The notes: generated by a model from the sequence alone, not told the origin. Positions 34,217 through 61,824 are shown, counted from the first letter of the stretch. The stretch is 64,000 bases of DNA from Minisyncoccota bacterium (GCA_041675085.1 JBAYUN010000002.1:79967-143966), one strand, 5' to 3'. Made by a program: numbers and translations.

Positions 34217-34232
34217 AAGAAAATTGAAATAA

Positions 34233-44769: not shown

Positions 44770-45342
44770 ATGATAGCTAGCATCACAGGCAAAATAACCC
44801 TAATAAAAGACAAATTCATGGTCATAGAGACCAACGGTTTAGGCTACAAAGTTCACGTCTCCCCCGACATTATCGACAGACATACAAAAAATACTAATAC
44901 CGAAATCTCTCTTTTTATTTATTCTCATATCCGTGAAGATGCTTTTGACCTATACGGCTTCTTAGAATACTCTGATTTAGAATTTTTTGAAATGCTTATT
45001 AGTGTATCGGGTATCGGACCGAAAGGAGCTCTCGTTATACTCGCAGTAGCTAGCACTAATACTCTGAAAAAAGCTATCAAGCAAAATGACCTCGGTTATC
45101 TGACGAAGATATCCGGTATCGGTAAAAAGACTGCAGAGAAAATGATACTCGAGCTCCGAGACAAAGTAGGAATAGCAGAAGAGAATGATAGTAGTCTCCA
45201 AAACGAACTAGATGTACTCGAAGCCTTAAAGGCGCTCGGTTATTCTCAATACCAAGTACGTGAAACTTTGAAACAAATGGATCCTAGTATGGACACAAAT
45301 ACAAAAATCCGAGAAGCGTTAAAAATATTAGGTAAAATGTAA
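44770..45342 (+). CDS. ruvA: Holliday junction branch-migration protein RuvA
   Basis: The N-terminus MIASITGKI...NGLGYKVHVS is the RuvA domain I signature. 190 aa. Confidence 0.8.
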   Translation: MIASITGKITLIKDKFMVIETNGLGYKVHVSPDIIDRHTKNTNTEISLFIYSHIREDAFDLYGFLEYSDLEFFEMLISVSGIGPKGALVILAVASTNTLKKAIKQNDLGYLTKISGIGKKTAEKMILELRDKVGIAEENDSSLQNELDVLEALKALGYSQYQVRETLKQMDPSMDTNTKIREALKILGKM

Positions 45343-45343
45343 T

Positions 45344-46243
45344 ATGCCAGAATTACCAGAAGTAGAAAATCTAAGACTAGGATTAGAAAGTAAAATCCTC
45401 GGACAGAAAATACTAAAAGTAGAAGTCTATAAACCTAAATTAGTCTCGAGCAAGAGTACTAAACGCACTCCTTCCAAAAAGAAAGTCGTAGAATTTGAGA
45501 ACGGTTTAACTAATGAGAAATTCATCGCCGTAGAAAGACGAGCCAAGAATCTGATCTTTAGACTAAGTCACGACAAGATAATCCTAGTTCATCTAAAAAT
45601 GACGGGGCAATTCGTCTATAAATCTAAAAAGAAAGAAAAGAATATTACGGGCGGGCATCCGATATTTCTCTCTGAGAGTGAATTGCCAAACAAGCACACT
45701 CATATCATATTTCATTTATCAAACGGGACTCTGTATTATAACGACACCCGTATGTTTGGGTACGTACTATATTATCCAAGTCAAAAAGAATTCGACAAAG
45801 AAAATCATTTTAAAAAATTGGGCTTAGAGCCAGTAGAAAAAGATTTTAATTCTGCATATTTCTCTCAAAAATTAAAAACTAAAAAAGGCAAAATCAAAGC
45901 CGTCTTATTAAATCAAGATATCGTCACCGGCGTCGGCAATATCTACGCGGACGAGAGCTTGTTTGAGTCTGGTATCAGACCTGACCGACAAGCTAATACT
46001 TTAAAAATTGATGAAGTATCTAAATTACATAAAGCTATAATTAGAATTATAAAAAAAGCTATTTCTGTCGGAGGCTCAAGTGTAGCTACCTATCGCCTAC
46101 TCGACGATACAGAAGGCAACTATGCGAGAGAGCATAAAGTTTACGGTAAAGTTGGCAAGAAATGTGTGAACTGTGAGGAAAAACTTGAGAAAATAATAAT
46201 CCAAAGTCGTACTACTATCTTTTGCAAAAATTGCCAGAAATAA
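45344..46243 (+). CDS. mutM: Formamidopyrimidine-DNA glycosylase (Fpg/MutM)
   Basis: N-terminal MPELPEVE catalytic Pro2/Glu3 and a C-terminal zinc finger CVNC...CKNC. Confidence 0.85.
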   Translation: MPELPEVENLRLGLESKILGQKILKVEVYKPKLVSSKSTKRTPSKKKVVEFENGLTNEKFIAVERRAKNLIFRLSHDKIILVHLKMTGQFVYKSKKKEKNITGGHPIFLSESELPNKHTHIIFHLSNGTLYYNDTRMFGYVLYYPSQKEFDKENHFKKLGLEPVEKDFNSAYFSQKLKTKKGKIKAVLLNQDIVTGVGNIYADESLFESGIRPDRQANTLKIDEVSKLHKAIIRIIKKAISVGGSSVATYRLLDDTEGNYAREHKVYGKVGKKCVNCEEKLEKIIIQSRTTIFCKNCQK

Positions 46244-46282
46244 AATATTTTAAAAAATTAGATTAATTGATATAATATACGG

Positions 46283-46432
46283 ATGAAATTGATACTTGGA
46301 TTTATTGGAATAGTTGCGGTCTTATGGCTATTATGGTTTTTCTCTGGTGGCCCTAGAAAATTTGAAGAAAACCCTCAAGGTAAATTTATCCGACCTCTAC
46401 AGATAGACGCTCCAGCTGAAACTTACGACTAA
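46283..46432 (+). CDS. Possible 49-aa small membrane protein
   Basis: MKLILGFIGIVAVLWLLWFFSGGPRK... This short ORF in an otherwise empty 200-nt gap is not in the >=60 aa track. Confidence 0.25.
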   Translation: MKLILGFIGIVAVLWLLWFFSGGPRKFEENPQGKFIRPLQIDAPAETYD

Positions 46433-46440
46433 TTTTAAGT

Positions 46441-46917
46441 TTAGATTTTCAAAACTCCATACAAGAATACGCCCAAAGATACTGAGACATTGAGGGACTC
46501 CTTTTTTCCTTTCATGGGTATCTCGCCTATGACGTCGGCTTTATCTAAAATCTTTTTATCTACTCCGGTAACTTCGTTACCTACGATAAAAATATTCTTC
46601 TCGCCGAGTTTTATTTTCTTATAATGAATAGATCTTTTGTCTTGCTCCAAGCAGATTATTTTGTATCCTTCGCGTGATAACTTTGTTAAAAGAGGTATTA
46701 AGCTTTTTTTGTATTCCCAAGGTACAGACTCCTCAGCACCGAGAGCGGATTTAGCGATATCATTACGCTTTTTACCGAATCTATCGACAGGGCTCGCAGT
46801 ATAGCCAGTAATATATATCTTATCGATACCGGTAGCGTCAGCCGTCCGGAACATAGCTCCGACGTTTTCCGTACTACGAATATCATTAAGTATTAAAACA
46901 TTTGTTTGTTTTTTCAT
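46441..46917 (-). CDS. SpoU/TrmH-family RNA 2'-O-methyltransferase
   Basis: 158 aa with the SPOUT motifs ENVGAMFRTADATG and IVGNEVTGV. Confidence 0.75.
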   Translation of the reverse strand: MKKQTNVLILNDIRSTENVGAMFRTADATGIDKIYITGYTASPVDRFGKKRNDIAKSALGAEESVPWEYKKSLIPLLTKLSREGYKIICLEQDKRSIHYKKIKLGEKNIFIVGNEVTGVDKKILDKADVIGEIPMKGKKESLNVSVSLGVFLYGVLKI

Positions 46918-46918
46918 A

Positions 46919-48295
46919 TTATTTCAAAAAATTCTTACCACGCATTTGTTTATGATACGTTATCGCGAATCTGTGCGCTTCGTTGTTTACCAATATTATC
47001 TCTCTTTTATATTTATTTATAAAGGTCGAACCTTGGACTCCCTTAAGGTTCGACCTTGGGGAGAGAGTTAATTTCGCTACTTTATGTCTATTGTCTTTAG
47101 TCACAGCTACGACTTTGATATCAAGATTATTTTCTCTCAATACTTTCTCTGCCGTATTTATCTGAGCTGTACTACCGTCGACTACTATAAACGAAGGCAA
47201 GGTCCATTCTGTATGCTTTAGCCTTCTCTCCAAGACTTCTCTCAAAGCTCCCGTATCGTTAGCGTCACTCTGTGTTCGGATTTTGAATTTCTTGTATTCA
47301 TTTTTAGCAACTTCGCCATCTTCAATAACAGTCATAACTCCGACCATATTCTGTCCGCTCATATGCGCTATGTCATAGGCTTCTATGCGAAAAGAGAAAT
47401 TTTGGATATGCTTGGAGGAGTATTCGCTACCGCCAGATAAATCTTGAGGATTCAAGATAGAGTGCGAACGACGGAGAGCATTTCCAAAATTTTGATTTTC
47501 GTATTTATCATCCCCTTTTATTAATGCAATATCATTAATATGATTTAGTGCAAAAATCTTTCTTTTTATTTCTCCAGCTTTTTCAAATTCTAATTTCTTA
47601 GCATGGATCTTCATCTCGCGATTTAGATCTATGATAATATCTTTCTTCTTACCGTTTAGGAAAAGAATAATATGTTTAATATTTCTCAAGTACTCTTTTT
47701 TATTTTCTTCACTAGGGACGAGTTTTATCTGTTTATAAAATTCTTTATAGTTTTTAGTCTTGTCGTCATAAAATGGAAATATTTTCCTGATGATTTTGAG
47801 AGCTTCACGAAGCTGACCGCCATTCGTATAAGGGCCAAAGACTTTTTTATAATCACTCTTATCTAAGTTCTTGCCTCTTAGAACTAAGACTTTAGGTAAT
47901 TCGTCCCCGCCTGCATCGCTATGCGAAGCATTTCGGGCAGGTTTTGTAATACAAACATAATTAAAGCTCTTGTCAGACTTCTCTTTGGTATTGTAATATG
48001 GTTGATGCTTTTTTATTAAATTAGCTTCTAGTATCAAAGCTTCAAGGACGCTCGGAGTCTCTATCCATTCGATATTCTCTGCTTTAAAAACCATATCTAC
48101 GAGCAAAGGACCACGAGTATCTATCAAATCCTTACCAAAATAACTACGCACCCTGTCTTTTAGGCTTGTGGCTTTACCGATATATAAAATATTAGAAGAA
48201 AAACCCTCCTTCGCATAAAGCTTCGGATGGGCGAGAAACAGGTAAACTCCTGGCTTGTCGGGTAAATCGTAAGTTTTGAAAGTTTGACTTTTCAT
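46919..48295 (-). CDS. uvrC: Excinuclease ABC subunit C (short form)
   Basis: N-terminal GIY-YIG (GVYLFL...LYIGKATSLKDRVRSYF) and an endonuclease V-like C-terminal region with NNEAHRF. 458 aa, so the C-terminal HhH region is absent or short. Confidence 0.75.
   Translation of the reverse strand: MKSQTFKTYDLPDKPGVYLFLAHPKLYAKEGFSSNILYIGKATSLKDRVRSYFGKDLIDTRGPLLVDMVFKAENIEWIETPSVLEALILEANLIKKHQPYYNTKEKSDKSFNYVCITKPARNASHSDAGGDELPKVLVLRGKNLDKSDYKKVFGPYTNGGQLREALKIIRKIFPFYDDKTKNYKEFYKQIKLVPSEENKKEYLRNIKHIILFLNGKKKDIIIDLNREMKIHAKKLEFEKAGEIKRKIFALNHINDIALIKGDDKYENQNFGNALRRSHSILNPQDLSGGSEYSSKHIQNFSFRIEAYDIAHMSGQNMVGVMTVIEDGEVAKNEYKKFKIRTQSDANDTGALREVLERRLKHTEWTLPSFIVVDGSTAQINTAEKVLRENNLDIKVVAVTKDNRHKVAKLTLSPRSNLKGVQGSTFINKYKREIILVNNEAHRFAITYHKQMRGKNFLK
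47022..47057. repeat. 36-bp perfect-arm palindromic element inserted in-frame in uvrC
   Basis: aaggtcgaacctt-ggactccc...aaggttcgacctt. It encodes ...RSNLKGVQGS... inside UvrC. Confidence 0.6.
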
Positions 48296-48356
48296 AGAAA
48301 CACTATAGTATATAAAATGGATAATGTAAATTTGTTAACGCATAAAATTTTAAATA

Positions 48357-48662
48357 ATGAAATATTTTAGATTCATAATAATAGGACTTTTGTATCTATT
48401 AAAAGATTTATTCTATATAGTATTGGTTCAACCAATAGTAGAATTTTTAGAAGCAATAAAAAAAATTGCTGATGAATTACTAAACATAGTGGCGAGTGCG
48501 CCATACATCAAGGTCTTTCATGAGTTTTTGGCTTTTGGACCAATCACAGTTACAAATCTTTTTCTAAAAGAAGAAAGCAAGTACATAAAAGCCGCAAATT
48601 TTTTAAAAAACTTCAAAACCTCAACCGAGGATACTAACATCTTTAACAAAAAGATTAAATAA
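48357..48662 (+). CDS. Hypothetical small protein
   Basis: 101-aa ORF in the uvrC-uvrA gap, with a hydrophobic N-terminus. Confidence 0.3.
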   Translation: MKYFRFIIIGLLYLLKDLFYIVLVQPIVEFLEAIKKIADELLNIVASAPYIKVFHEFLAFGPITVTNLFLKEESKYIKAANFLKNFKTSTEDTNIFNKKIK

Positions 48663-48717
48663 AATTAGAAAAAAATTAAAACAAAATCGATTCCATTATA
48701 CAATGAAGTCGATTTTT

Positions 48718-51354
48718 TTATTTCCGTAAAACTTTTTTCAAATATTTGCCTGTATGAGATTTTGGAGTATTGGCTATCTGTTCTGGAGTACCTTTAGCTA
48801 CCAGTGTCCCTCCACCTATTCCCCCTTCAGGTCCAATATCAATAACATAGTCAGAACATTTTACGATGTCTAGATTGTGTTCAATTAAAACTACAGTATT
48901 GCCTTTAGTCACTAATTTATTTAAAACTTCGAGAAGCTTCGCAACGTCATCATAGTGCAATCCCACAGTCGGCTCGTCGAGTAGATAGATAGTCTTTTCT
49001 AAATGCGGACGATAAAGTTCACTTGAGATTTTTACTCTTTGAGCTTCACCTCCAGAGAGAGTTGTCGCTGACTGACCGAGCTCGAGATAACCTAGTCCTA
49101 CGTCTATAAGAGTACTTAATCTATCATGCACCGCTGGAATATCTTTGAAGAATACAACAGCCTCTTCGACAGTCATACGCAAAACTTCATAAATATTTTT
49201 CTTTTTATATTTTACAGTTAAAGTCTCTTTGTCGAATCTTTTACCAAGACAGACGTCGCAAGTCACATACACAGTAGGCAAGAAATGCATCTCAACAGCT
49301 ATCTCACCGTTACCCTCACAAGCCTCACAACGTCCACCTTTAACGTTGAAAGAGAAACGATTGGACTTCCATCCACGCAAGCGAGCTTCGTCGGTAGTCG
49401 CGAATAAATCTCTAATATGAGTAAAGGTTCCAGTATAAGTCGCTATATTTGACCTCGGAGTACGTCCTATCGGGGATTGATCTATCAATATCACACGAGA
49501 GAGGTATTCAGTTCCAGAAAAAGAACTGCAGTTGAAAACTTGAGCTGAGCGGTATTTGCGCTCATAGCGAGCTTGAAGATTTTTGAATAAAATCTCATAC
49601 ATAAAAGAACTTTTACCTGATCCTGAAACTCCAGTAATAGAAGTCATAACTCCAATAGGTACGTCGACGTTCATGTTGTCGATATTAAAAACTTTACCTC
49701 CAACAATACGTAAATGACCTTTGGCTTCGCGACGACGTTCTGGAATTTCTATTTTTATTTCTTCTCTTAGATATCCTAAAGTTCTAGAATTATTTGTATT
49801 CTTTTTAGCGGTCAATAAGTCTTCTAGATATCCAATAGCGACGACTTCCCCTCCATGCACTCCAGCCTTCGGTCCGATGTCTACGATATAATCCGACGCA
49901 TAAATAGTATCTTCATCATGCTCTACTACAAGAATAGTATTTCCTAAATCTCTCAAGTCGAGCAAAGTCTTTATCAATCTATCATTATCTCTCTGATGCA
50001 GTCCGATAGTCGGTTCATCGAGCACATACAAAGCTCCTACGAGTCTAGAGCCTAATTGAGAAGCGAGACGAATACGCTGAGCTTCACCTCCAGAGAGAGT
50101 ATTGGCCTTACGAGATAATTGCAAATAGTCGAGCCCTACGTCTAACATGAATTCTAAGCGAGCTTCTATCTCTTTGATAACCGGCAAAGATATCTCTGCT
50201 TCTTTCTCTGTAAGTTTTAAATTCTTGAAAAATTGATAAGCGTCATTAATAGATAATGATGATAGGTCTAAAATATTAACTCGGTTTTTATTTATTTCTT
50301 TTTTACCTTTAGGTGCAGCAGTTTTAATATCAGAATAAAGAAAAACATTCAAAGCCTCGACGCGTAGTCGAGCTCCTTTACAAGTATCACAAGGTTCATC
50401 TCCGCCAAAGTATTTAGAACCCAAACCGTTACAATCCGGACAAGCTCCATAAGGAGAATTGAAAGAGAAAAGTCTAGGCTCTACTTCTGGGAAAGAATAT
50501 CCGTCATTCTTACAAGCGAATTTCGCCGACATAATAAATTCTTCATCTCCTATCTTTATATTCACAAGTCCATCAGATTCTAAAAGAGAACGCTCGAGAG
50601 CTTCCGATAGTCTCATACGAGAACCTTCTTTATCATCAGTGAATTCATGCACCATAAAATTATCTACCAAGATATCTATGTTGTGAGCTTTATTCTTTGA
50701 TAGAGTTATCTGCTCGCGAAGATTTTTCATAGCACCGTCGAGTCGAATCTGAGAAAAACCTTTACCAAGTAAATCATAGAGCAATTGATAGTACTCGCCT
50801 TTCCTACCGCGGACTACAGGAGAGAAAATGCTAATCTCTATTTCATTCCATTCTACACCGAGAACTTTTTTATTATTTTTAGTATTTTTAGAAAGCGTAT
50901 TTATTTTCTCTAAAATAAAATTCAAAATTTCTTCATTAGAAAGTTTCTTGATCTCTTCGCCACATTCTGGACAATGAGGGTGTCCGATACGGGCATACAT
51001 AACACGAAGATAATCGTATATCTCGGTGATAGTCGCGACGGTCGAACGTGGATTATTGCTACGTGATTTTTGATCGATAGAAATAGCTGGAGAAAGTCCA
51101 GTGATTTCGTCCACGTCAGGCTTTGGCATTTGATTCAAGAATTGGCGAGCATAAGAAGACAGACTCTCTACATAGCGTCTCTGCCCTTCTGCGAAAATAG
51201 TATCGAAAGCAAGTGACGACTTCCCAGACCCAGAAACTCCAGTAATAACCACCATTTTATTGCGTGGCATAACCACAGAGATATTCTTTAGATTATGAGT
51301 CCGAGCTCCTTTAACCACTATTTCTTCTATATTTTTGTTTTCTTTTTTAGCCAT
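48718..51354 (-). CDS. uvrA: Excinuclease ABC subunit A
   Basis: 878 aa with two ABC ATPase modules (GVSGSGKSS twice, LSGGE signature twice) and zinc-finger Cys clusters. Confidence 0.9.
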
Positions 51355-51388
51355 AAAAACGTATTATAACACAAAAATACAACTTTTT

Positions 51389-53596
51389 CTATTTCCCCAT
51401 TCGGACTTTTAGAACACCTATCTCATCTCTTAGTATTGCAGCGGTTTCGAAGTCTAGCTCTTTGACTGCTTTAGACATTTCTTTCTCTTTTATTTTTATG
51501 ATTTTCTCATAGACTACGTTACTCCTCTCTTCGTCAGACATATGGAGTTTTACTTCTACTTTGTCTTTTGTTTTAGTTACTTTACTGTTGTCTTGTTTTA
51601 ATTCTTTGGCATAAGCGCGCTTGAATATTTCCAAATCTAAATCAAGTTCAGCGTTCACAGCTTTACCGTGCTCACTCTCCATCTCTTCAGTAATATCTTT
51701 AATATTTTTTAAAATAGTTTTCGGAGTGATGCCATTCTTTTTATTGAAGGCTATTTGAGTATTGCGGCGACGAATAGTTTCTTTGAGTGCTCTCTCCATA
51801 GAACCCGTGAGACGATCGGCATAAAGAATAACCCTACCCTCAGAGTTACGCGCCGCACGACCGATAGTCTGAATCAATGAAGTTTCACTACGCAAGAAAC
51901 CTTCTTTATCAGCGTCAAGAATACCGATTAACGCTACTTCGGGTAAGTCTAAACCTTCACGGAGCAAGTTGACCCCGACTAAAACATCGTATTTACCTTT
52001 ACGAAACTCAGTCAATATCCGTATTCTATCTAAAGTTTTGATATCACTATGCAAATATTCGGCTTTTATCTTTTTGTCTTTTAGATAATTGGTCAAATCT
52101 TCAGCCATCTTCTTGGTCAAAGTCGTAGCCAAAACACGAAAACCTTTCTTTATAGTTATCTCGGCTTCTTTTATAAAATCTTGAATCTGACCAGGGTAAA
52201 TTGAATTTCCAGAGGTCGGACCTCGGGACCCCTTGAGGTCCGACCTCAAATCTGCAGATACAGGTCTAACAATAGTCTCCGGATCAATAAGCCCAGTCGG
52301 ACGAATGATTTGCTCTACAATTTTCTCACTCATATCTCTCTCTTGTTCGCCTGGTGTAGCCGACACGTACACAACTTGGCCTATCCTAGGTTCGAATTCT
52401 TCATAACGAAGAGGCCTATTATCTTTTGCTGAAGGCAAACGAAATCCATATTCAACCAGTGTATTCTTGCGAGATCTGTCACCCGCATACATGCCTCCAA
52501 GTTGAGGCAAGGTCACATGAGATTCATCGATGATAGTCAAAAATTCTGGATTACCATTCTTGTCATGAGGAAAATATGAGAGCAAAGTCTCTGGCGGTTC
52601 GCCTTCTTTTTTGCCTGACAGATGACGAGAATAGTTCTCGATACCAGAGCAGTACCCTACTTCTTTTATCATAGCTAGATCATAATTCGTACGTCTCTTG
52701 ATTCTTTCAGCTTCAAGTAATTTCCCTTCCTTTTTAAAATATTTTAATTGAACATCTAATTCTTTTTTGATATCTATTAGAGCTTTTTTAGTCTTGACGT
52801 CTTCGGTGATAAAGTGCTTGGCTGGGAAAATAAAAATACTTTCTTCTTCTTTCAAGACAATAGAAGATACTGGATCAGTCTTTGTAATTGAAAGAATTTG
52901 CATTCCAGAGGTCGGACCTCGGGACCCCTTGAGGTCCGACCTCAAAGATCCCAATTCAATAGAATACATCAAAGTCTCAGAGACTGGCATGAATTCTACC
53001 TTGGTGCCTACCGCTCGAAAACTACCAGGGGTCAGGTCGGCATTGGTACGCTCAAAATGAATACCAATGAGCTTCTTCATCAAAGTTAAACGGTCGATCT
53101 TCATTCCGATTTCGAGTTTTAAATTTGTCTTCTCGTACTCTTCTGGACTACCAAGACCATAAATACAAGATACGGACGCGACTATAACAACGTCACGACG
53201 AGTGAGTAATGCCTGAGTAGTAGCATGGCGTAGTCTATCTATCTCTTTATTTATCTGAGCGTCTTTTTCAATAAAAGTATCGGATGCTGGCATATAAGCT
53301 TCTGGTTGATAGTAGTCATAATAAGATACAAAGTAATGCACCGCAGCATCAGGGAAAAAAGCTTTGAACTCTTGAGCGAGTTGAGCGGCTAGGGTTTTAT
53401 TGTGAGCTATTATTAGAGTCGGCTTGTTGTGCTCTAGAATAACGTTGGCCATAGTAAAAGTCTTACCGGTACCTGTCGCACCGAGCAAGGTTTGTTTCTG
53501 TAGGCCCTTGTTTAAACCTTCTACCAATTCCGTTATGGCTTTGGGTTGATCTCCCGCAGGCTTGAATTCACTTTGTAATTTGAAAATTTTGTTCAC
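51389..53596 (-). CDS. uvrB: Excinuclease ABC subunit B
   Basis: Helicase motifs GATGTGKTF and DESH, a beta-hairpin region and the C-terminal UVR domain. It carries two identical in-frame peptide insertions, SDLKGSRGPTSG. Confidence 0.9.
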   Translation of the reverse strand: MNKIFKLQSEFKPAGDQPKAITELVEGLNKGLQKQTLLGATGTGKTFTMANVILEHNKPTLIIAHNKTLAAQLAQEFKAFFPDAAVHYFVSYYDYYQPEAYMPASDTFIEKDAQINKEIDRLRHATTQALLTRRDVVIVASVSCIYGLGSPEEYEKTNLKLEIGMKIDRLTLMKKLIGIHFERTNADLTPGSFRAVGTKVEFMPVSETLMYSIELGSLRSDLKGSRGPTSGMQILSITKTDPVSSIVLKEEESIFIFPAKHFITEDVKTKKALIDIKKELDVQLKYFKKEGKLLEAERIKRRTNYDLAMIKEVGYCSGIENYSRHLSGKKEGEPPETLLSYFPHDKNGNPEFLTIIDESHVTLPQLGGMYAGDRSRKNTLVEYGFRLPSAKDNRPLRYEEFEPRIGQVVYVSATPGEQERDMSEKIVEQIIRPTGLIDPETIVRPVSADLRSDLKGSRGPTSGNSIYPGQIQDFIKEAEITIKKGFRVLATTLTKKMAEDLTNYLKDKKIKAEYLHSDIKTLDRIRILTEFRKGKYDVLVGVNLLREGLDLPEVALIGILDADKEGFLRSETSLIQTIGRAARNSEGRVILYADRLTGSMERALKETIRRRNTQIAFNKKNGITPKTILKNIKDITEEMESEHGKAVNAELDLDLEIFKRAYAKELKQDNSKVTKTKDKVEVKLHMSDEERSNVVYEKIIKIKEKEMSKAVKELDFETAAILRDEIGVLKVRMGK
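52213..52248. repeat. 36-bp perfect palindromic element inserted in-frame in uvrB (copy 1)
   Basis: gaggtcggacctc-gggacccctt-gaggtccgacctc. The 44-nt segment ttccagag...ctcaaa is identical to copy 2. Confidence 0.65.
52908..52943. repeat. 36-bp perfect palindromic element inserted in-frame in uvrB (copy 2)
   Basis: Identical to the copy at 52213. The UvrB alignment context (IVRPVS...GQIQDF) indicates extra residues relative to canonical UvrB. Confidence 0.65.
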
Positions 53597-53886
53597 AAGA
53601 TTATATTAGCATAAAAATAAGAAAGGTCCGTATCGTGAGATAAGGACCTTTTTATATTGTGTGCAACTAAAAGTTGCGATGGTTAATTTGGTTTGAGGAT
53701 TGTTTGTTTAAGTTTTGGGTGATCGAATAATCGATCAACTTTTGGAAACAATCCTATAGGAACATTTGTATATATTATAGACCACTGACACATTCCCGCA
53801 ATGATTAAAATGTGGATAACTAATTTAACTTAAAAAGCTTGATTTTTAGCTTTATTTAATATATATTTTAATAGTTATAAATAAAT

Positions 53887-53912
53887 GTGCTCGTAGCTCA
53901 GTTGTAGCGGTT
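53887..53912 (+). repeat. Degenerate partial copy of the tRNA-Lys 5' end (acceptor plus D arm), 43 nt upstream of the intact gene
   Basis: Compare gtgctcgtagctcagttgtagcgg with gcgctcgtagctcagtcggtagagc at 53955. Confidence 0.55.
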
Positions 53913-53954
53913 TCAACTGAAATATATAGCAAAATAAAATTTAATAAAAAATAT

Positions 53955-54027
53955 GCGCTCGTAGCTCAGTCGGTAGAGCAGCTCCCTTTTAAGGAGATGG
54001 TCGAAGGTTCGATTCCTTCCGAGCGCA
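53955..54027 (+). tRNA. tRNA-Lys (anticodon TTT)
   Basis: gcgctcg-ta-gctcagtcggtagagc-a-gctcc-ctTTTaa-ggaga-tggtc-gaaggttcgattccttc-cgagcgc-a. Confidence 0.85.
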
Positions 54028-54028
54028 C

Positions 54029-54277
54029 ATGGTAAATGAAACATTCACTTTAAAAAAACAAATCAATGAATCTACAACTGAAAACCCAATTTCAGCAAGA
54101 GAGGCAAAATTATTAGAAATTCAAAGACAAGAAAACAAATTCAAAATATACATAGAAGAGTTAAAAACTAGCACTCCCTCAGAAGGAAGAAGTCAGGAAG
54201 ATATAAGAAAAATTTTTGAAAAAATAGAACAAAAAATGAATGAAAATTTTGAAGAAATAAGAAAAAGCTTAGAATAG
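54029..54277 (+). CDS. Hypothetical charged coiled-coil protein
   Basis: 82-aa ORF beginning 2 nt after tRNA-Lys, rich in K/E. Confidence 0.35.
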   Translation: MVNETFTLKKQINESTTENPISAREAKLLEIQRQENKFKIYIEELKTSTPSEGRSQEDIRKIFEKIEQKMNENFEEIRKSLE

Positions 54278-54283
54278 TTAGGT

Positions 54284-54928
54284 TTATAAAACCTCCAATA
54301 AAAACCTCTCAAAAACAATCTCCGCATCTTTGCCTTTTCGCCTAGCCTCAGGCAATAAATATGAAATCTTATTTGCAATATCTTGCAAATCTTTTTCTGT
54401 ATATTTACTGAAATTTTTCTTTAATATCATATCTTTAACTTTCCAAAAAAGCACTCCAGTTAACTCCTCTAACCCTACCCCGAGATCTACAGCCTGGCGA
54501 TAATAAAGCCATAACTTTATTTTATCTTTTAATGCGAAAGCATCGGCTAAAAGAAAATTATTAAACTTTTCTTTTTGTTCTTTTCTTAATTCAAAAATAT
54601 TAATAGTGGCTTTAACTTTTTCAAATTCATTTAAGACTGGTTTCAATAATTTTCCCTCTGAAAAAATAAAGATATTATTTGAGGCTTGGAACAGATCCAA
54701 GTTGTCTAAAATAAAAGTAGCGTTATCTTTATTATCTAAAATATTCAAAAATACCACTACGCTCTGTGCATCAAAAAGACTAGAACCTGAATAAAGGCTC
54801 TCTATCTCCATTTTATTAAAATTATTTTTACTGATAGAGATAACAGGCAACGTACCAAAACTTTTCAAAAAAGCCTCGTATTGTTTTATTTTGTTTTGAG
54901 CATCGTCCCCCGCAAAAAGATATATCAT
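54284..54928 (-). CDS. Possible DNA polymerase III delta subunit (HolA-like)
   Basis: 214 aa. The N-terminal MIYLFAGDDAQ pattern and its position adjacent to polA suggest HolA, but the similarity is weak. Confidence 0.35.
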   Translation of the reverse strand: MIYLFAGDDAQNKIKQYEAFLKSFGTLPVISISKNNFNKMEIESLYSGSSLFDAQSVVVFLNILDNKDNATFILDNLDLFQASNNIFIFSEGKLLKPVLNEFEKVKATINIFELRKEQKEKFNNFLLADAFALKDKIKLWLYYRQAVDLGVGLEELTGVLFWKVKDMILKKNFSKYTEKDLQDIANKISYLLPEARRKGKDAEIVFERFLLEVL

Positions 54929-54929
54929 T

Positions 54930-55421
54930 TTAAAACTTAACTATTTTTTTATATTTACGATAAGCATCGCCAAACTTTTTCTCAAGCTCGAGTTCTTGTT
55001 TTTTTACAAAAGTATATTTAGTTATAAAAAATGTAAAGAAAGTTAGAACAATCACAAAGAAAGAATTAATAATGAATCCAAAACCCATCACAGCTAAAAA
55101 CAAACCAAAATGTGTAGGAGTCCTAGTATAGCAATACGGCCCTCGGCAAAAATGCTCTTCGTTCACATCTTCTTTGTGTAATAAATCTATAGAACTATTT
55201 TGTGCCCAAAAAACTAAAATACTAGAAAAAACCAAAAACATAATACCAACAAAAACCATTATAGAATCATGAAAAATTTTAATTGGAAATAAGAAATCCA
55301 AAAAAATACCCAAGATTAAAGCAAATAGATGTACTAAATAAGAATAAGACAAAGATGAATGCACCGCATGGTCTTTGTGCTTGTTATGCTTGAGATTTAA
55401 TTTATTGTCTACTTTGTCCAT
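54930..55421 (-). CDS. Isoprenylcysteine carboxyl methyltransferase / phospholipid methyltransferase-family membrane protein
   Basis: Four TM helices and the C-terminal motif EELELEKKFGDAYRKYKKIV. Confidence 0.5.
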   Translation of the reverse strand: MDKVDNKLNLKHNKHKDHAVHSSLSYSYLVHLFALILGIFLDFLFPIKIFHDSIMVFVGIMFLVFSSILVFWAQNSSIDLLHKEDVNEEHFCRGPYCYTRTPTHFGLFLAVMGFGFIINSFFVIVLTFFTFFITKYTFVKKQELELEKKFGDAYRKYKKIVKF

Positions 55422-55442
55422 AATGTAATTATAACATAAAAG

Positions 55443-57854
55443 CTATTTTACCTCCCCGAAATTTTGCCCAAATCCAGAATTGGCTATCAGAGGCACATCA
55501 GTTTTGTATTTTAAATATGACCTAGACAATACAGTCTCCATAGCGTTTTTAATGATTTTCTCAGCTTGTGGTATAACTTCATCCTTGATTTCATAAACTA
55601 ATTCATCATGAATCTGTAAAACTAAAAATACTTTATCTTTAAGTCCGGCTTCTTTTAAATCCAAATCTGCAAAAAGTATTGCGAGTTTGATAATATCAGC
55701 GGTAGCTGTGCCTTGGATAGGTGCATTGATAGCAGTACGTTCAGCCATACTTTTTAAAAATGGAAGCCTTGAGTTAATATTAGGGAAATATCGGCGTCTG
55801 CCAAAAAGAGTTTCTGTATAAGATGTCTCACGCGCAAAGACCTTTACTGACTCGAGATAAGACTCTATACCGGAGAATTGTTTGAAATAATTATCATAAA
55901 ATTTCTGAGCTTCTTCTCTCGTTCCACCGAGGTTTTTACGCAAAGCAGATACTCCCATTCCATAGATAATACCAAAGTTTATAACTTTAGCCTGACGTCG
56001 CATCTCAGCATCGACTTTGTCTACATCTACACCGAAAACAAAACTCGCCACTCCCGCATGAATGTCTTTACCATCTCTAAAAATCTCATTCATTCTCTTG
56101 TCCCCTGAGAGCATAGCGGCGACGCGTAACTCTATCTGACTGTAGTCAAAAGCTCCGAGCTTGTATCCCTTTGGAGCCACGAAGGCTTTACGTATTCTTT
56201 TACCCAATTCGCTTTTAATGGGCAAGTTCTGCAAATTTGGATCGACAGAAGAGAATCTACCTGTAGTCGTAGCATTCTGCAAAAATCTAGAATGCAATCT
56301 GTCGTCAGCCCCTACCATTTTAGGAATCACATCAATATAAGTAGAAAGCAATTTCTGTAATTCACGATAACTAATAATCTCTGTAATTATCGGATTATCT
56401 TCTTCTAATTCTTCTAAGATAGATATCTTTGTAGAGAGGTTACCGTTTGCTCCCCTCTTTTTACCACTCTTAATACCCATTTTCTCAAACAAAACTTCCC
56501 CCAATTGTTTTGGGGAATTTATATTAAACTCAGTGCCAGCCATTTTATAAATCTTCTTTGTAAGCAAGTCTAATTCTTTATGATATTCTTTTGATAATTC
56601 TGCAAAATATTTCTGATCGATTAGAATACCATGATCTTCCATTTCTTTGACTATAGGCACGATAGGCATTTCTATCTCTTGGTAAACTTTCTTTAATTTT
56701 TCATCACTGTTTAATTTATTTAAAATATATTCTTTTGCATCTTTAAAATTACTAGTCTTCGCATAGAGCAAAATATCTTCGAGTTTAGGCACACTAATAT
56801 CCGAATTCAAAACCCATAAAGCGATAGAGATTTTATTCAACTCATCAGGATCTACGTCTTCTGTTTTAGTTTCTTCTACTTTAGTCTCACCAAATTCTTC
56901 ATCTAGAGATTTAGGATTATTATCATGGATACCAGTACCATTATTAAAAAAACTCTTGAGCCTCGATAATAATGAACGAAATTCAAAAGTTACGAATACT
57001 TCTTCAACTTTTTTCAAATCAGAATTATCCCAAAATGTTTTCTCGGGTAATTTAAAATCAATAGGCGCGTCACGTCTTATAGTCGCTAAAGTCTTAGAAA
57101 ATAAAGCTTCTTCTTGATTATTCTTTAAAAGTTCCAAAATACGAGGAGTGATACCGAGAGGTTTAAATACTGTATCATCACGCTTAATTTGTTTATAAAT
57201 ATTTTCAATAGTTTTAAATTCTACTATGAGAGTAGTCGCAGTTTTCTCTCCTATACCTTTGATACCTATGATATTGTCGGACGGGTCGCCACGGAGTCCT
57301 TTGTAGTCGGGTAAATATTCCGGTTTAAAATTAAATCTCTCTAAGACTTTTTCTTCATCGTACAAAATAGTATCAGTAATACCTTTCTTTAAAGTAAAAA
57401 CTTGGACTTTTTTACCATCCACTAATTGCATAGTATCCATATCCCCTGAGGCTATGATTATCTCTATACTCTTATCTTTTTTAAATTGCTCTACTATTGT
57501 GCCCAAGATATCGTCAGCTTCAAAACCAGGTGCATCATAAATAGGGATATTAAAAGCTTCAAATATTTTTCTAGAACTTATAAGTTGAGAAATTAGAGCA
57601 GGATCAGCTTTAGCGCGACCAGCTTTATAAGCATCATAGGCATCATGTCTAAAAGTTTTCTGAGGCAAATCGTAACAGGCAATTATATAATCAGGTTTTA
57701 GATCTGAAATAATCTTCATCAACATATTAGAAAGACCATACAAGGCTCCGGTAGGTTCCCCACCGGAAGACATAAAGTCTGGAAGTGCATGATAAGCTCT
57801 ATGAATAATAGCGTGAGAATCTAGCAATACTATACGCTTTGGTTTTTCTTTCAT
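55443..57854 (-). CDS. polA: DNA polymerase I
   Basis: 803 aa. N-terminal 5'-3' exonuclease (VLLDSHAIIHRAYHAL) and a C-terminal family A polymerase with motif C QIHDELVYE. Confidence 0.85.
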   Translation of the reverse strand: MKEKPKRIVLLDSHAIIHRAYHALPDFMSSGGEPTGALYGLSNMLMKIISDLKPDYIIACYDLPQKTFRHDAYDAYKAGRAKADPALISQLISSRKIFEAFNIPIYDAPGFEADDILGTIVEQFKKDKSIEIIIASGDMDTMQLVDGKKVQVFTLKKGITDTILYDEEKVLERFNFKPEYLPDYKGLRGDPSDNIIGIKGIGEKTATTLIVEFKTIENIYKQIKRDDTVFKPLGITPRILELLKNNQEEALFSKTLATIRRDAPIDFKLPEKTFWDNSDLKKVEEVFVTFEFRSLLSRLKSFFNNGTGIHDNNPKSLDEEFGETKVEETKTEDVDPDELNKISIALWVLNSDISVPKLEDILLYAKTSNFKDAKEYILNKLNSDEKLKKVYQEIEMPIVPIVKEMEDHGILIDQKYFAELSKEYHKELDLLTKKIYKMAGTEFNINSPKQLGEVLFEKMGIKSGKKRGANGNLSTKISILEELEEDNPIITEIISYRELQKLLSTYIDVIPKMVGADDRLHSRFLQNATTTGRFSSVDPNLQNLPIKSELGKRIRKAFVAPKGYKLGAFDYSQIELRVAAMLSGDKRMNEIFRDGKDIHAGVASFVFGVDVDKVDAEMRRQAKVINFGIIYGMGVSALRKNLGGTREEAQKFYDNYFKQFSGIESYLESVKVFARETSYTETLFGRRRYFPNINSRLPFLKSMAERTAINAPIQGTATADIIKLAILFADLDLKEAGLKDKVFLVLQIHDELVYEIKDEVIPQAEKIIKNAMETVLSRSYLKYKTDVPLIANSGFGQNFGEVK

Positions 57855-57862
57855 ATTTATGA

Positions 57863-58345
57863 TTATAGCATTTTAAACTCAAATTTTCTTTGATTGTTTT
57901 TTGTATGACTTATGTAGATTTTGTAGAATTTTGTATTGATATTTTGCTCTATGATTTCTGGCCATTCTACTAAAATTAAATTTCTAGGATTAGAGACAAT
58001 TTCACTCCAGCCTAATATCTCTAATTCTTTTTTAATATCCTTCCCTTCCAGTCGATAAGCATCAATATGATAAATATTCTTCCATCCAGGGGTCCGACCC
58101 CCGGAAAGCTTTATAGCGTAACGTTTCATTAAGACAAAAGTTGGACTATTTATCTTTTGTTTTATTCCTAATATACGCGAGAAATATTGAACAAAAGTAG
58201 TCTTACCAGCGCCAAGATCTCCAAAAAGTCCTACTATCGTAGCGTCTTGTGTATCTTTATTTTTTGAATTTTGTTTTAAAATTTTATCTAGAAAATCTCT
58301 CGCAACATCTTCAAAATCCTCTATACTCTTGGTAACTTTTTGCAT
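57863..58345 (-). CDS. tsaE: tRNA threonylcarbamoyladenosine biosynthesis protein TsaE (YjeE)
   Basis: Walker A GDLGAGKTTFVQ followed by INSPTFVLMKRY. Confidence 0.75.
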   Translation of the reverse strand: MQKVTKSIEDFEDVARDFLDKILKQNSKNKDTQDATIVGLFGDLGAGKTTFVQYFSRILGIKQKINSPTFVLMKRYAIKLSGGRTPGWKNIYHIDAYRLEGKDIKKELEILGWSEIVSNPRNLILVEWPEIIEQNINTKFYKIYISHTKNNQRKFEFKML

Positions 58346-58443
58346 ATTAAAATACTAGCACGACTTTTAAAATATCAAAATAAAAAAGCCTTAATCATAT
58401 AAATGACTAAGGCTTTTAAGATAATTAATTTTTTAAAGAACAT

Positions 58444-59169
58444 TTAAAAAGGCCCAAACCACTCTCCGGACCCTTGGTCTCGGCATAGGTTCATGGGACG
58501 CTGTTCCCACCTTCTTTGTCTGCTGGAAACTGGAGTCTCTCCTGCTGGAAGAGTAAAGTAACCAATATGGGTTTCTCCCTGATCTATGTAATTATTATCA
58601 GTACCATAATGACGGTTACCATAGTTATGTTTAGAACTTTTCCTTGCATAAACTCTCCAACAAGTGCAAGCTTGCTCTTGCTGAACAACTTGTTGCACTG
58701 GAGCTGGTGATGGTTGCACATAAATTGTTTCCTGTACTATTTTTACATTTTCTTTTACTGGGACTTCTTCTGTTTTTGGTTGTGGTTTGATTACAACCCA
58801 GTCGAGATTCATACAGTCTTTTTTTAAGTATAAATTTACGGTTACTCCTTTCGGGTGACCAAAAATTTCACCATCTGTGCTACCCAAATAAACTACACTG
58901 AAAGTTCCTGTACCTAAACGAACAATTTCACCTTTTGGCGTTACGCCAGAATTCATGACAAATTTATTTTCAAACTTGCCAGAATCGTAAATTTTTTTCG
59001 CTTCTCTTGCTGTTTCCTCTGGCGAGGAAAAACCCATGCTTTGCCCCCATACTCGATAAAGGGCAATCTTAGCCCCTTCAGTTAGGGTGCCATTTTTTGC
59101 CCAAGCTTGAGCGTTAAGAAAATTAAAAGAAAAAAAGAAAATTACTGTAAAAGAAATTATGTTTCTCAT
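58444..59169 (-). CDS. Secreted hypothetical protein
   Basis: 241 aa with a signal peptide (FFSFNFLNAQA). The 5' half of the gene is visibly more GC-rich than its surroundings. Confidence 0.5.
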   Translation of the reverse strand: MRNIISFTVIFFFSFNFLNAQAWAKNGTLTEGAKIALYRVWGQSMGFSSPEETAREAKKIYDSGKFENKFVMNSGVTPKGEIVRLGTGTFSVVYLGSTDGEIFGHPKGVTVNLYLKKDCMNLDWVVIKPQPKTEEVPVKENVKIVQETIYVQPSPAPVQQVVQQEQACTCWRVYARKSSKHNYGNRHYGTDNNYIDQGETHIGYFTLPAGETPVSSRQRRWEQRPMNLCRDQGSGEWFGPF

Positions 59170-59187
59170 TATTTAATATTTTTATAT

Positions 59188-59240
59188 GTTATGAAAAGCT
59201 TTGGAAATGAAGTATTTTCCCAGCCAAAGCTTTTCATAAC
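59188..59240. promoter_or_regulatory. 17-bp perfect inverted repeat in the divergent intergenic region
   Basis: gttatgaaaagctttgg - 19 nt - ccaaagcttttcataac. Confidence 0.5.
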
Positions 59241-59339
59241 AAACTTTTGTCAAATAACCCCTTACTCTCATAGTATAGCATACTTTGATACAAAAGTCAA
59301 GGTTAGAAAACTTGAAAATACTGTATAATTAAAGGATAA

Positions 59340-61037: not shown

Positions 61038-61046
61038 AATAACAAT

Positions 61047-61733
61047 ATGAAAACCAAAACAAACAAAATAAAAACACAGAAAGAAATAGAGAATTTTTTC
61101 AGAGTAGCCCTATTTGGTAGCTCTAAGATTAAAAAAAACGATCCTATATATAAAGAAATAAAAGAACTAGGTAAAGCTCTAGCTAGAGAACAGATAGATA
61201 TAGTAACTGGCGGTGGAGCGGGGCTTATGCAAGCTGCAAGTGAAGGTCACGTTAAAGGACGGACTGGAAAAGAAAAGAATTTTCCTTCGATGAATATTCG
61301 TTCTATTGGTGTTGGAGTCAAGCTACCTTGGAATCAAGGATTTAACAACGCAATAGAATACAAAAAAGAATTTGGAACTTTCTCAGAAAGACTAGATGAA
61401 TTTATGCTTTTATCAAATGCAGTCATCGTCGCTCCAGGAGGTATCGGTACCCTACTCGAACTTTTCTATACTTGGCAACTTGTACAAGTTCATCATATTT
61501 GTAATATTCCGATAATTCTTTATGGAGAACAATGGGGAGGTTTATTGGAATGGATAAAAGAGAGTCCACTTCAAACAAAGTATCTAACAGATAGAGATTA
61601 TCAACTTGTGTTCCATGTTAAAAATCAAGAAGAAGTAATCGAGATGATTAGAGATTTGCACAAGCACTGGAGTACGGGCGGAAAAAATTTCTGTCTCAAC
61701 TACAATAAATACAAAGTATACTTAAAAAAATAA
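61047..61733 (+). CDS. LOG-family protein (cytokinin riboside 5'-monophosphate phosphoribohydrolase-like; TIGR00730)
   Basis: GGGAGLMQA and VIVAPGGIGTLLELF motifs. Confidence 0.75.
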   Translation: MKTKTNKIKTQKEIENFFRVALFGSSKIKKNDPIYKEIKELGKALAREQIDIVTGGGAGLMQAASEGHVKGRTGKEKNFPSMNIRSIGVGVKLPWNQGFNNAIEYKKEFGTFSERLDEFMLLSNAVIVAPGGIGTLLELFYTWQLVQVHHICNIPIILYGEQWGGLLEWIKESPLQTKYLTDRDYQLVFHVKNQEEVIEMIRDLHKHWSTGGKNFCLNYNKYKVYLKK

Positions 61734-61824
61734 CTTGTATTTTATTTTTAAAACAAATCTTTTTAGAGCATTCCCCTTCTGACCTAACGCCAAAAGATTT
61801 GTTTTTAAAAAATTAAAAACAAAA

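Follow-up and report, generated by a model that had tools for sequence, protein, structure and literature searches.

In-frame palindromic hairpins in uvrB and uvrC point to a small insertion element recurring across Patescibacteria

Two genes of one uvr cluster contain, within their reading frames, related GC-rich palindromes, which raises the question of whether these segments are original parts of the encoded proteins, signals serving the host, or insertions. The locus lies within a 64,000-nt stretch of DNA (hereafter the window) from an ultra-small bacterium of the Patescibacteria, with a GC content of 33.7%. Its relevant features are the following:

53623..53650, no strand assigned: terminator-like stem upstream of uvrB, AAAGGTCC-N-GGACCTTT with a T-run behind
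51389..53596, minus strand: uvrB, host gene, 735 aa, GTG start
52908..52943, minus strand: hairpin copy 1 (uvrB site 1), arms GAGGTCGGACCTC / GAGGTCCGACCTC, 10-nt loop
52212..52247, minus strand: hairpin copy 2 (uvrB site 2), same as copy 1 across 44 nt
48718..51354, minus strand: uvrA, between uvrB and uvrC, no hairpin copy in the window
46919..48295, minus strand: uvrC, host gene, short form, 458 aa
47906..47941, minus strand: separate 36-nt in-frame uvrC insert, CCTGCCCGAAATGCTTCGCATAGCGATGCAGGCGGG (PARNASHSDAGG), an imperfect palindrome
47022..47057, minus strand: hairpin copy 3 (uvrC), arms AAGGTCGAACCTT / AAGGTTCGACCTT, 10-nt loop

The window UvrB is 100% identical to an NCBI excinuclease ABC subunit UvrB of a Candidatus Paceibacterota MAG, and it matches solved UvrB at E = 1.7e-221. 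All three hairpin copies consist of a perfect 13-bp stem, as the earlier note had described, and a 10-nt loop; the uvrC element lies in frame exactly where that note had placed it. The identical 44-nt pair in uvrB (TTCCAGAGGTCGGACCTCGGGACCCCTTGAGGTCCGACCTCAAA) is also real, but the repeats are located at 52207-52250 (copy 2) and 52903-52946 (copy 1), with a spacing of 696 nt, rather than at 52209..52252 and 52904..52947 as first given. Scanning of the window with the degenerate 36-nt pattern (≤3 mismatches) recovered exactly these three sites (0.00 expected), and the window has no other GC-rich perfect hairpin with a 13-bp stem. The motif AGGTNNNACCT occurs at seven sites (0.67 expected), six of which are arms of the same hairpins. 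Predicted RNA folding energies of the copies are -28.1, -32.0 and -21.1 kcal/mol (z of about -4 versus shuffles).

The reading frame is kept through all three copies in the minus-strand uvrB and uvrC ORFs. Both uvrB copies encode LRSDLKGSRGPTSG, which forms UvrB residues 218-231, between YSIEL and KISKI (copy 1), and residues 450-463, between VRPVSA and YPGQIQD (copy 2). The uvrC copy encodes SPRSNLKGVQGST, within AKLTLSPRSNLKGVQGSTF (UvrC residues 407-425). Translation of the element as part of the host protein is read here from the intact ORFs only.

Alignment of UvrB and UvrC with related orthologues revealed that the extra residues are missing from proteins sharing 94-96% identity with the window ones. 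The segments are therefore insertions relative to close orthologues, each of about 36 nt and adding 12-14 residues, in agreement with the earlier claim of in-frame insertion twice in uvrB and once in uvrC. Both insert sites fall in gaps of solved UvrB chains (21 residues at site 2), which bears out the statement that canonical UvrB is devoid of these residues. At the DNA level, filled and empty alleles (overall nucleotide identity 87.5%) differ in uvrB by a net gain of +42 nt at site 1 and +39 nt at site 2, the empty allele of site 2 in P0006/L121 being VSAGDKKNSYPGQ, while in the L072 UvrB the gain is precisely the 36-nt hairpin. Each insertion also occurs singly, at site 1 in P0003 and at site 2 in P0004, and the copies are thus polymorphic among close relatives. 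One UvrC 94% identical to that of the window (P0122) has no hairpin and reads HKV-SELKGDK-ALI. UvrC proteins of only 64-70% identity (P0130, P0131, P0136) carry the hairpin at this site, as do L109 and L137. Relatives carry unrelated inserts at the position of uvrB site 2, and uvrC has three further in-frame inserts besides the hairpin, which vary between lineages. No target-site duplication was found at the window uvrB and uvrC sites, with L072 allowing at most a 2-nt TC ambiguity; nor was a sharp, repeatable insertion boundary seen, the flanking codons of the window differing between filled and empty alleles.

Species-representative genomes were searched with the family pattern AGGTCGNACCT-N10-14-AGGTNCGACCT, which retrieved at least 120 loci where chance would give about 3; of the 120 loci listed, 97 carry Patescibacteria lineage labels. 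Judged by these matches, the same hairpin recurs across the whole Patescibacteria (CPR) group and is not private to the window genome, a spread at odds with the earlier remark that such elements are rare outside Rickettsia. The pattern has no match in IMG/VR viral contigs, and the hairpin does not belong to the curated structured RNAs of Rfam, which yielded only tRNAs at gathering score and nothing at E ≤ 1 within 46900-53800. No prior description of the family was found in the literature. At least five copies are present in each of the MAGs JAGOSH01 and MFVV01, and the window has three per 64 kb; few additional copies were detected in related loci (~1 Mb). Some are locally clustered, with three copies in the uvr cluster of the window, three in that of JAGOSH01 (L072 and L109) and three together in L134. 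In relatives, uvrA carries the hairpin after ALNVFL, where the window UvrA has 20 other residues (50278-50337).

The unit of ~36 nt is composed of two 13-nt arms, RAGGTCGNACCTY and its complement, with 8-12 nt between them. Each arm (RAGGT-CGN-ACCTY) is itself nearly palindromic. Across 124 copies, 95-96% have a Watson-Crick pair at the 13th arm position, 111 have a central N that pairs between the arms, and 101 keep the pairing of the ends within an arm. Lone single arms were almost never found, and decayed copies exist (L088).

Orthologous copies are 84-100% identical and their 240-nt flanks 65-80%, a comparison biased by the recruitment of loci through an exact pattern over 20 of the ~36 positions. 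The site 1 copies of the window and L072 are identical at 36/36 positions, with flanks at 73%. Where the arms of the window uvrC copy differ from those of L109 and L137, every change is compensated, and in these alignments the arms are seen to keep perfect complementarity as the host gene diverges. Pairing extends into the flanks beyond the core (stems ≥8 bp) in 10.4% of copies versus 1.5% of controls. In a 17-member subfamily the outer helix has both-side changes in 6/7 pairs, and its covariation (0.267, versus 0.101 in shuffles) was reached by 0/500 shuffles. The 100% identity of some orthologous copies, together with their patchy spread, could equally be due to selection acting on the sequence or to laterally transferred patches.

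With respect to coding context, 76 of 107 copies (71%) are located inside ORFs of at least 150 aa, the corresponding share for 595 positions drawn at random from these loci being 78%; the family thus occurs in coding sequence about as frequently as random positions do. Placement within a gene shows no relation to its start or end. Each element offers two to six stop-free frames of the six, and most frames are free or nearly free of stop codons; both orientations occur, and the RSDL frame is used in 44 cases and the other two in 23 and 9. The 94 host ORFs contain 123 Pfam families and include UvrA, DNA ligase LigA, aminoacyl-tRNA synthetases, pseudouridine synthases and P-type ATPases; across the group, most of the genes entered are essential ones. 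The hit on UvrB and UvrC as partners in a single repair complex, to which the earlier note drew attention, is thus special only in part, although uvrA, uvrB and uvrC are indeed repeat hosts in several lineages.

These copies probably represent a small non-autonomous palindromic insertion element, widespread in Patescibacteria (CPR) and translated as loop extensions of its host proteins; our best reading is that it is built like a REPIN and behaves like an RPE. A trans-acting function would recognize the hairpin or its 13-bp near-palindromes and copy the element to new sites, either by a REPIN/RAYT-type single-strand transposase or by copy-choice template switching between copies. Only copies landing in frame in tolerant surface loops would survive, translated as 12-14 added residues such as RSDLKGSRGPTS. 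Intrastrand template switching (quasipalindrome correction) or selection on the fold may keep the arms perfect and maintain or extend locus-specific outer stems. Copies may be lost cleanly by slippage across the stem; a site would then be found either intact or empty, as is the case. This explanation implies no benefit to the host, and calling the element selfish is an inference. Observations that count against it include the following: the window contains no mobilizing gene (no transposase among 66 ORFs scanned against Pfam, the sole homing-type gene being a LAGLIDADG ORF far from the uvr hairpins), neither a target-site duplication nor a repeatable boundary was seen, and the apparent copy number is low, unlike typical REPIN populations.

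Rickettsia palindromic elements (RPEs) are about 100-150 bp long, form ten families and are confined to Rickettsia (PMC10969869). The Patescibacteria hairpin resembles them in being a palindromic repeat inserted in frame in unrelated housekeeping ORFs of a reduced-genome, host-dependent bacterium, adding a peptide while the protein is kept, and neither has a known transposase (PMC10969869). It is, however, shorter (a 36-nt unit, with a longest exact repeat of 44 nt) and is one simple hairpin with near-invariant 13-bp arms found superphylum-wide; given this size and the hosts, sequence relatedness to RPEs would not be expected. We regard it as a so far undescribed counterpart of the RPEs.

REPINs consist of two inverted copies of a short, self-palindromic sequence with a spacer, forming a hairpin (PMC3337134); the Patescibacteria element has the same architecture and also shares long persistence with a conserved sequence. 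REP/REPIN sequences, however, lie outside genes, are longer, usually number tens to hundreds per genome and sit on either side of a RAYT gene that occurs once, whereas 71% of the Patescibacteria copies lie within ORFs, the arms are only 13 nt, the copy number is apparently low and the 66 ORFs of the 64-kb window include no RAYT (Y1 transposase). Prokaryotic MITEs, such as the Coxiella QMITEs and intragenic ERIC (PMC10969869, PMC5896051), are likewise non-autonomous repeats capable of in-frame fusion with host ORFs, but they have terminal inverted repeats around a body, target-site duplications and lengths of 50-500 bp. The Patescibacteria element, in contrast, is an inverted repeat throughout (stem and loop) and has no target-site duplication.

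Mitochondrial GC clusters and double-hairpin elements were reportedly described by Weiller in 1989 and by Paquin, Laforest and Lang in 2000, and GC-rich hairpin "byps" in Magnusiomyces mitochondria are said to have been described by Lang et al. in 2014. All are GC-rich palindromic mini-elements of an AT-rich compact genome that also enter protein-coding genes, and in them, as in the Patescibacteria hairpin, each half can fold alone; they differ in being organellar and unrelated in sequence, and byps are skipped by the ribosome. DNA-uptake sequences (DUS/USS) occur about once per kb and are made up of existing codons. Like them, the hairpin is a short conserved motif found clade-wide in competent bacteria, inside genes, in some cases as inverted pairs, and with a bias towards genome maintenance, but it is sparse (three copies per 64 kb) and adds codons.

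The hairpin might instead be a DNA or RNA signal selected by the host, its sequence kept by selection and gathering where proteins tolerate it, although we consider this unlikely. Possible forms of such a signal are a pair of 13-bp palindromes bound by a conserved Patescibacteria protein, a motif for DNA uptake or recombination, and a hairpin controlling mRNA stability or translation. Conservation of the arms over very deep lineages, intact despite flank divergence, would fit this proposal, as would their near-palindromic form, which resembles dimer binding sites, and the covarying outer stem, which suggests selection on the fold. Patescibacteria have been described as naturally competent epibionts, and type IV pilus genes (PilB, PilC and PilM) are encoded in the window. 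The many genome-maintenance hosts (UvrA, UvrB, UvrC, LigA) recall the uptake sequences of Neisseria and Haemophilus, whose bias towards such genes was reportedly noted by Davidsen et al. in 2004. However, the copies, sparse in related loci as well as in the window, are much too rare for an uptake signal, the closest relatives manage without them, and their placement is unrelated to gene starts or ends. Moreover, they add residues instead of rewriting existing codons, lone arms are almost absent and decayed copies are known.

It is similarly doubtful that the hairpin constitutes a self-maintaining palindrome system peculiar to Patescibacteria, which might operate in either of two ways. The core could nucleate template switching, so that the arms stay perfect and outer stems grow from neighbouring codons; surface loops of essential enzymes would then be continually rewritten. 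Alternatively, it could be an uptake or recombination signal that drives lineages to exchange patches of genes laterally. Both versions would account for 100% identical copies inside genes that are only 73-79% identical, and for clustering in repair-gene clusters.

Removal of the element at the RNA level, or its bypass by the ribosome as in the Magnusiomyces byps, would yield proteins without the extra residues. A stable GC-rich hairpin within coding sequence of an AT-rich genome, and the mitochondrial analogy, speak for this process, which is nevertheless very improbable: the frame is open through 71% of copies, equal to background coding density, net length changes are all multiples of three, stops are avoided in the used frame with none at a take-off site, and Rfam gave no match. 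Excision or bypass would require neither an open frame nor multiples of three nor stop avoidance, so these features count against it, and translation through the insertion element is the simpler reading.

That the segments are hypervariable ancestral or convergent loops of UvrB and UvrC, and not insertions, is extremely improbable. Three UvrB sites and the UvrC site do vary in length across relatives and hold several unrelated segments, but the uvrB copies are DNA-identical over 44 nt, more than the 86-89% identity between uvrB orthologues, and the same 36 nt occur in unrelated UvrA, P-type ATPase, DNA ligase and aminoacyl-tRNA synthetases. The use of both orientations and all three frames marks the repeat as a property of DNA, not of protein. 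That the copies arose artificially during assembly or sequencing, for example through misjoins at repeats or palindromes resembling adapters, has a practically negligible probability, even though identical 44-nt repeats might mislead an assembler and all the data are metagenome assemblies, as the same alleles occur in NCBI, JGI, ENA and Logan records, a separate JGI record (P0002; 144,627 nt) has the identical two-insert UvrB, some relatives carry either uvrB copy alone, every copy is in frame, and the family is found in at least 120 assemblies from many projects.

Two other palindromes of the cluster fall outside the family. The hairpin at 53623-53650, which the earlier note had related to the uvr elements, does exist, but L125 has at the same position an unrelated stem (AAAGACTTTAATT...) followed by an identical CTCATTTTTATG, and its membership was rejected. 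With its conserved position, non-conserved stem and T-run behind, it is an ordinary terminator-like stem; a simple terminator scanner made no call there because the loop exceeds 8 nt. The uvrC insert at 47906..47941 is missing from the syntenic relative L125 as a clean gap of 36 nt, with no flank duplicated. It folds at -18.1 kcal/mol, and its presence varies among UvrC homologues; it belongs to a different family from the hairpin, yet behaves alike.

Three copies of a conserved hairpin element interrupt two genes of the window without breaking their reading frames: uvrB carries two copies and uvrC one, as the earlier note had claimed. The hairpins are perfect, and they lie as follows:

51389-53596, minus strand, uvrB (735 aa)
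52908-52943, hairpin core at uvrB site 1, perfect, GAGGTCGGACCTC-N10-GAGGTCCGACCTC
52212-52247, hairpin core at uvrB site 2, perfect, GAGGTCGGACCTC-N10-GAGGTCCGACCTC
48718-51354, minus strand, uvrA
46919-48295, minus strand, uvrC
47022-47057, hairpin in uvrC, AAGGTCGAACCTT-N10-AAGGTTCGACCTT

The two uvrB cores are embedded in mutually identical 44-nt segments (52207-52250 and 52903-52946); the same note had recognized these repeats but placed them 2 and 1 nt away. All three copies are open in frame and would be translated as LRSDLKGSRGPTSG (twice, in UvrB) and SPRSNLKGVQGST (once, in UvrC). A search of the 64-kb window (GC content 33.7%) with a degenerate 36-nt pattern, allowing up to three mismatches, returned only the three uvrB/uvrC sites (0.00 expected). 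The half-site AGGTNNNACCT alone is present at seven positions (0.67 expected), six of them being arms of the three hairpins. The predicted RNA folds of the copies have energies of -28, -32 and -21 kcal/mol (z of about -4).

Comparison with orthologues identified the added residues as insertions, since they are missing in close relatives. The UvrB protein of the window is 100% identical to that of a Candidatus Paceibacterota MAG, and relatives sharing 94-96% identity lack one or both segments: homologues P0006 and P0010 have neither insert, P0004 only that at site 2 and P0003 only that at site 1. At the DNA level, the filled uvrB alleles exceed the empty ones by 42 and 39 nt, and the codons adjoining the core also differ between them. 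Contig L125, a syntenic 15-kb relative (87.5% identical), gave the same outcome for uvrB and is devoid of the uvrC copy as well. The UvrB of locus L072 is more distant (84% identical), and its site 1 has gained precisely the 36-nt hairpin (GNS-RSDLKGSRGPTS-EISKI versus TGS-KISKI). Neither a target-site duplication nor a fixed target motif could be convincingly distinguished at the filled/empty junctions. An AlphaFold2 model of the window UvrB, computed from a 16-sequence alignment for surface placement, was unusable (mean pLDDT 42.9); alignment with solved UvrB chains was used instead, and these lack residues at both insert sites.

The element belongs to a family that is widespread in Patescibacteria. 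A scan for AGGTCGNACCT-N10-14-AGGTNCGACCT, with each species represented by a single genome, revealed at least 120 loci, compared with about 3 expected by chance according to our own estimate, and this strict pattern undercounts the family by about half, because it does not catch copies in which the arm order is swapped (AGGTNCGACCT ... AGGTCGNACCT). Such swapped-arm copies include:

L001, 186-220
L050, 4250-4284
L068, 5415-5449
L087, 1123-1157
L112, 3905-3939

Among the matches listed, 97 are labelled as Patescibacteria lineages (Paceibacterota, Saccharibacteria, Nomura-, Taylor-, Kaiser-, Vogel-, Lipton-, Zambryskibacteria and others), 12 as unclassified "bacterium" and 11 as other phyla. 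A near-exact search of metagenomes for the variant found in the window yielded 10 loci: four share one uvrA site, one lies in uvrC at the same site as in the window, three belong to an orthologous P-type ATPase, and the remaining two are elsewhere. The family pattern had no match in IMG/VR viral contigs, and Rfam returned only tRNAs for the whole window at the gathering score and for 46900-53800 at E ≤ 1.

Matches outside Patescibacteria include L020 (7822-7854) and L091 (397-429), the latter two from Bacteroides sp. 224, as well as L069 and L086 (Prevotella, Prevotellaceae). These are intergenic and differ in their outer bases. They may represent an unrelated Bacteroidales repeat with a coincidentally shared core, or chance. 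Locus L088 (Candidatus Vogelbacteria) contains four copies within 8 kb, at 1374, 2032, 4923 and 6668, all sharing the loop TAAATCCCCAAA; three of the four have a decayed right arm, they are apparently non-coding, and the cluster suggests either a local burst or a region that is itself repeated.

Comparison of 124 copies defined a stem of 13 bp. Pairing is seen in 96% of copies just outside the 11-nt pattern and in 95% just inside it, while further positions pair in only 26-48%, and the central N is complementary between the arms in 111 copies. The arms end in A...T in 66 copies and in G...C in 35, which makes most arms themselves palindromic except for the central triplet. Loops are 8-12 nt long and fall into recurrent types, e.g. 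AAGGGNNCCC and RRGAATTYAAA; in some copies the palindrome runs unbroken through the centre. Solo arms are scarce and nearly all of them proved to be one half of a swapped-order pair, which rules out single arms as independent binding sites.

Complementarity extends beyond the core more often than in mismatched controls: flanking stems of at least 8 bp accompany 10.4% of copies, compared with 1.5% of the controls. A subfamily of 17-18 copies, located in different genes, has the arrangement outer stem/GGGAA/core/GAGGA/outer stem. Its outer stem varies in sequence from locus to locus with pairing kept (two-sided changes in 6 of 7 pairs; UA, CG, GC and AU all seen at one position), and the observed covariation score was reached by none of 500 shuffles. 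The outer stem may travel with the element or be built from the target; of two orthologous loci, L008 carries an outer stem of 11 bp and L044 lacks one. These two loci were dropped as UvrB orthologues in the outer-stem test; they encode another protein of about 770 aa, 18-20% identical to UvrB.

Coding sequence is not avoided. Sufficient context was available for 107 copies: 76 of them (71%) fall within stretches that stay open for 150 codons or more, and 17 are clearly non-coding. Random positions in these loci, judged by the same criterion, reach 78%. Copies occur in either orientation and use all three frames, with a preference for the frame read as RSDL (44 uses versus 23 and 9). The host ORFs (n = 94) match 123 Pfam families, including class I aminoacyl-tRNA synthetases (7), UvrA (5), UvrB-type proteins (4), NAD-dependent ligase (4), pseudouridine synthases (4), DnaJ (4), UvrC (3), MnmA, P-type ATPases and translation GTPases. 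Thus, the subunits of the repair complex, to which the earlier note had drawn attention, are indeed frequent and recurrent hosts, but they are only some among many. Distinct hairpin sites number three in UvrB, two in UvrC and one in UvrA. A single contig of JAGOSH01 (loci L072 and L109) carries three copies in uvrB and uvrC, and locus L134 has two in uvrB and one in uvrA. The UvrA site follows ALNVFL, where the window has a stretch of 20 residues (50278-50337) and five other Paceibacterota contigs (L074, L128, L131, L133 and L134) have the hairpin.

Orthologous copies are 84-100% identical, compared with 65-80% for their 240-nt flanks, although the former figure is inflated by the choice of loci by exact pattern; loops were free in the genome scan, yet are often identical. 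Pairs identical at 36 of 36 positions include window site 1/L072, L003/L107, L070/L084 and L129/L136. Where arms differ between orthologues (window uvrC versus L109 and L137; L072 versus L134), each change has its compensating counterpart in the opposite arm. In the UvrB and UvrC alignments, which were not pattern-selected, each site holds either an intact-looking copy or nothing; decayed copies do occur elsewhere (L088). Presence is at odds with relatedness, as distant relatives carry copies that are missing in the closest ones.

A binding, uptake or regulatory signal under selection would account for this conservation and covariation, but does not fit the low density of the element, its lack in the closest relatives and the codons that it adds. 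Removal at the RNA level or ribosomal bypass is unnecessary, given that the reading frames remain open. Ancestral hypervariable loops cannot explain why unrelated proteins share identical DNA. An artefact is excluded because the hairpin alleles recur in independent NCBI, JGI, ENA and Logan assemblies.

The data show repeated insertion of the conserved hairpin, intact reading frames, polymorphism, no avoidance of genes and compensated arms; its spread, survival, maintenance and loss are inferred to run as follows. The element is built like a miniature REPIN (paired REP sequences mobilized by RAYT), and its spread could depend on a trans-acting function that recognizes the hairpin or, alternatively, on copy-choice between copies. 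At the uvrC site the DLKG of the element coincides with a native (D/E)(I/L)KG, which hints at microhomology. The survivors would be copies that keep the frame within tolerant loops. Intrastrand template switching is a known route for correcting imperfect palindromes and might keep the arms perfect with no need for selection; it could also lengthen palindromes into the flanks, which fits the altered codons beside the copies of the window. Clean loss might occur by slippage across the stem. The Pfam scan of window ORFs detected no mobilizing gene or transposase; it distinguished housekeeping, type IV pilus and ribonucleotide reductase genes, the repair cluster and one free-standing LAGLIDADG ORF.

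To our knowledge, palindromic repeats that colonize essential genes in frame are essentially represented by one textbook case, that of Rickettsia. The hairpin would be a second, independent case, and differs from the first in its much smaller unit, its wider taxonomic spread (much of the CPR) and its near-invariant 13-bp arms. The rarity of such elements elsewhere, assumed at the outset, holds for the literature but not for the sequences: a 2024 MITE review singles out the Rickettsia palindromic elements (PMC10969869) and no account of a Patescibacteria case was found, but at least 97 loci are labelled as Patescibacteria. Our search for descriptions of the hairpin in work on Patescibacteria, CPR, Parcubacteria and Saccharibacteria, with most subscription papers outside it, found none. 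The presence or absence of copies can serve as a MAG marker that tells apart relatives with 94-96% identical proteins. The hairpin also explains some of the differences in length between housekeeping proteins of the CPR (for UvrB, the listed homologues span 701 to 792 aa), and annotation of such genomes requires caution, as inserts can misguide alignment, structure prediction and domain calling. The identity of the factor recognizing the 13-mer could uncover a new DNA-handling activity in hosts that are only lately becoming genetically tractable.

The hairpin is one of several families that remodel the loops of CPR housekeeping proteins, because the same genes carry small in-frame inserts of other kinds, polymorphic among relatives. 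Two of these are present in uvrC of the window:

47906-47941, minus strand, second insert family, 36-nt in-frame imperfect palindrome CCTGCCCGAAATGCTTCGCATAGCGATGCAGGCGGG (PARNASHSDAGG)
47414-47473, third insert family, 'RRSHSILNPQD..SEYSS'

The former corresponds to a clean gap in L125 (87.5% identical), with no duplication of the flank, and its peptide PARNASHSDAGG comes and goes across UvrC homologues (P0125, P0129, P0136, P0145 and P0165). The latter has the general form ...(R/N)SHS(I/V)L(E/N)(G/P)Q(D)...SE(D/Y)SS... and in relatives (P0003, P0004, P0009, P0012, P0013 and P0046) occupies two UvrB sites, FPH^PDFL and VRPVSA^YPGQ, the second being a hot spot shared with hairpin copy 2 of the window. 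The uvrC gene of L125 has a clean insertion of a 21-nt perfect mini-hairpin, CCTGCCTGCCGGTAGGCAGGG (LPAGRQG), at about 7019-7039, which is missing in the window (about 47322). Near the UvrC N-terminus, an extra segment (48191-48235, LAHPKLYAKEGFSSN) separates the first two GIY-YIG strands and is lacking in many homologues; L109 has a bona fide hairpin copy (FFLGGKRSDLGDSRGPTSKSQILY) at this position; in the window, the segment could be the remnant of an insert that has decayed.

The hairpin at 53623-53650, which precedes the GTG start codon of uvrB by 27 nt, had been considered related to the uvrB and uvrC elements. Its position and the T-run that follows it are kept in L125 with an entirely different stem sequence, which rules it out as a family member; it is a terminator-like stem. 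A 79-nt exact direct repeat (34191-34269 and 34986-35064, spacing 795 nt) likewise has a terminator-like hairpin at its end (AAAAACCACTTAAG...CTTAAGTGGTTTTT). Together with an overlapping 139-nt repeat of 78% identity (34889-35027/35640-35778), it suggests tandemly duplicated small genes that have no Pfam match.

The ORF at 13063-13758 (minus strand), directly upstream of tRNA-Leu (12975-13060), encodes a LAGLIDADG_3 domain (E = 2.3e-8) and is predicted to be a homing-endonuclease-like gene, with no intron visible around it. The region 44770-63182 is a dense repair and recombination cluster (ruvA, fpg, uvrC, uvrA, uvrB, polA and ruvB), and ruvX is located at 19075-19506. Type IV pilus genes form two sets in the window, with PilB-like genes at 7176-8915 and 59340-61037, PilC, PilM and pilin.
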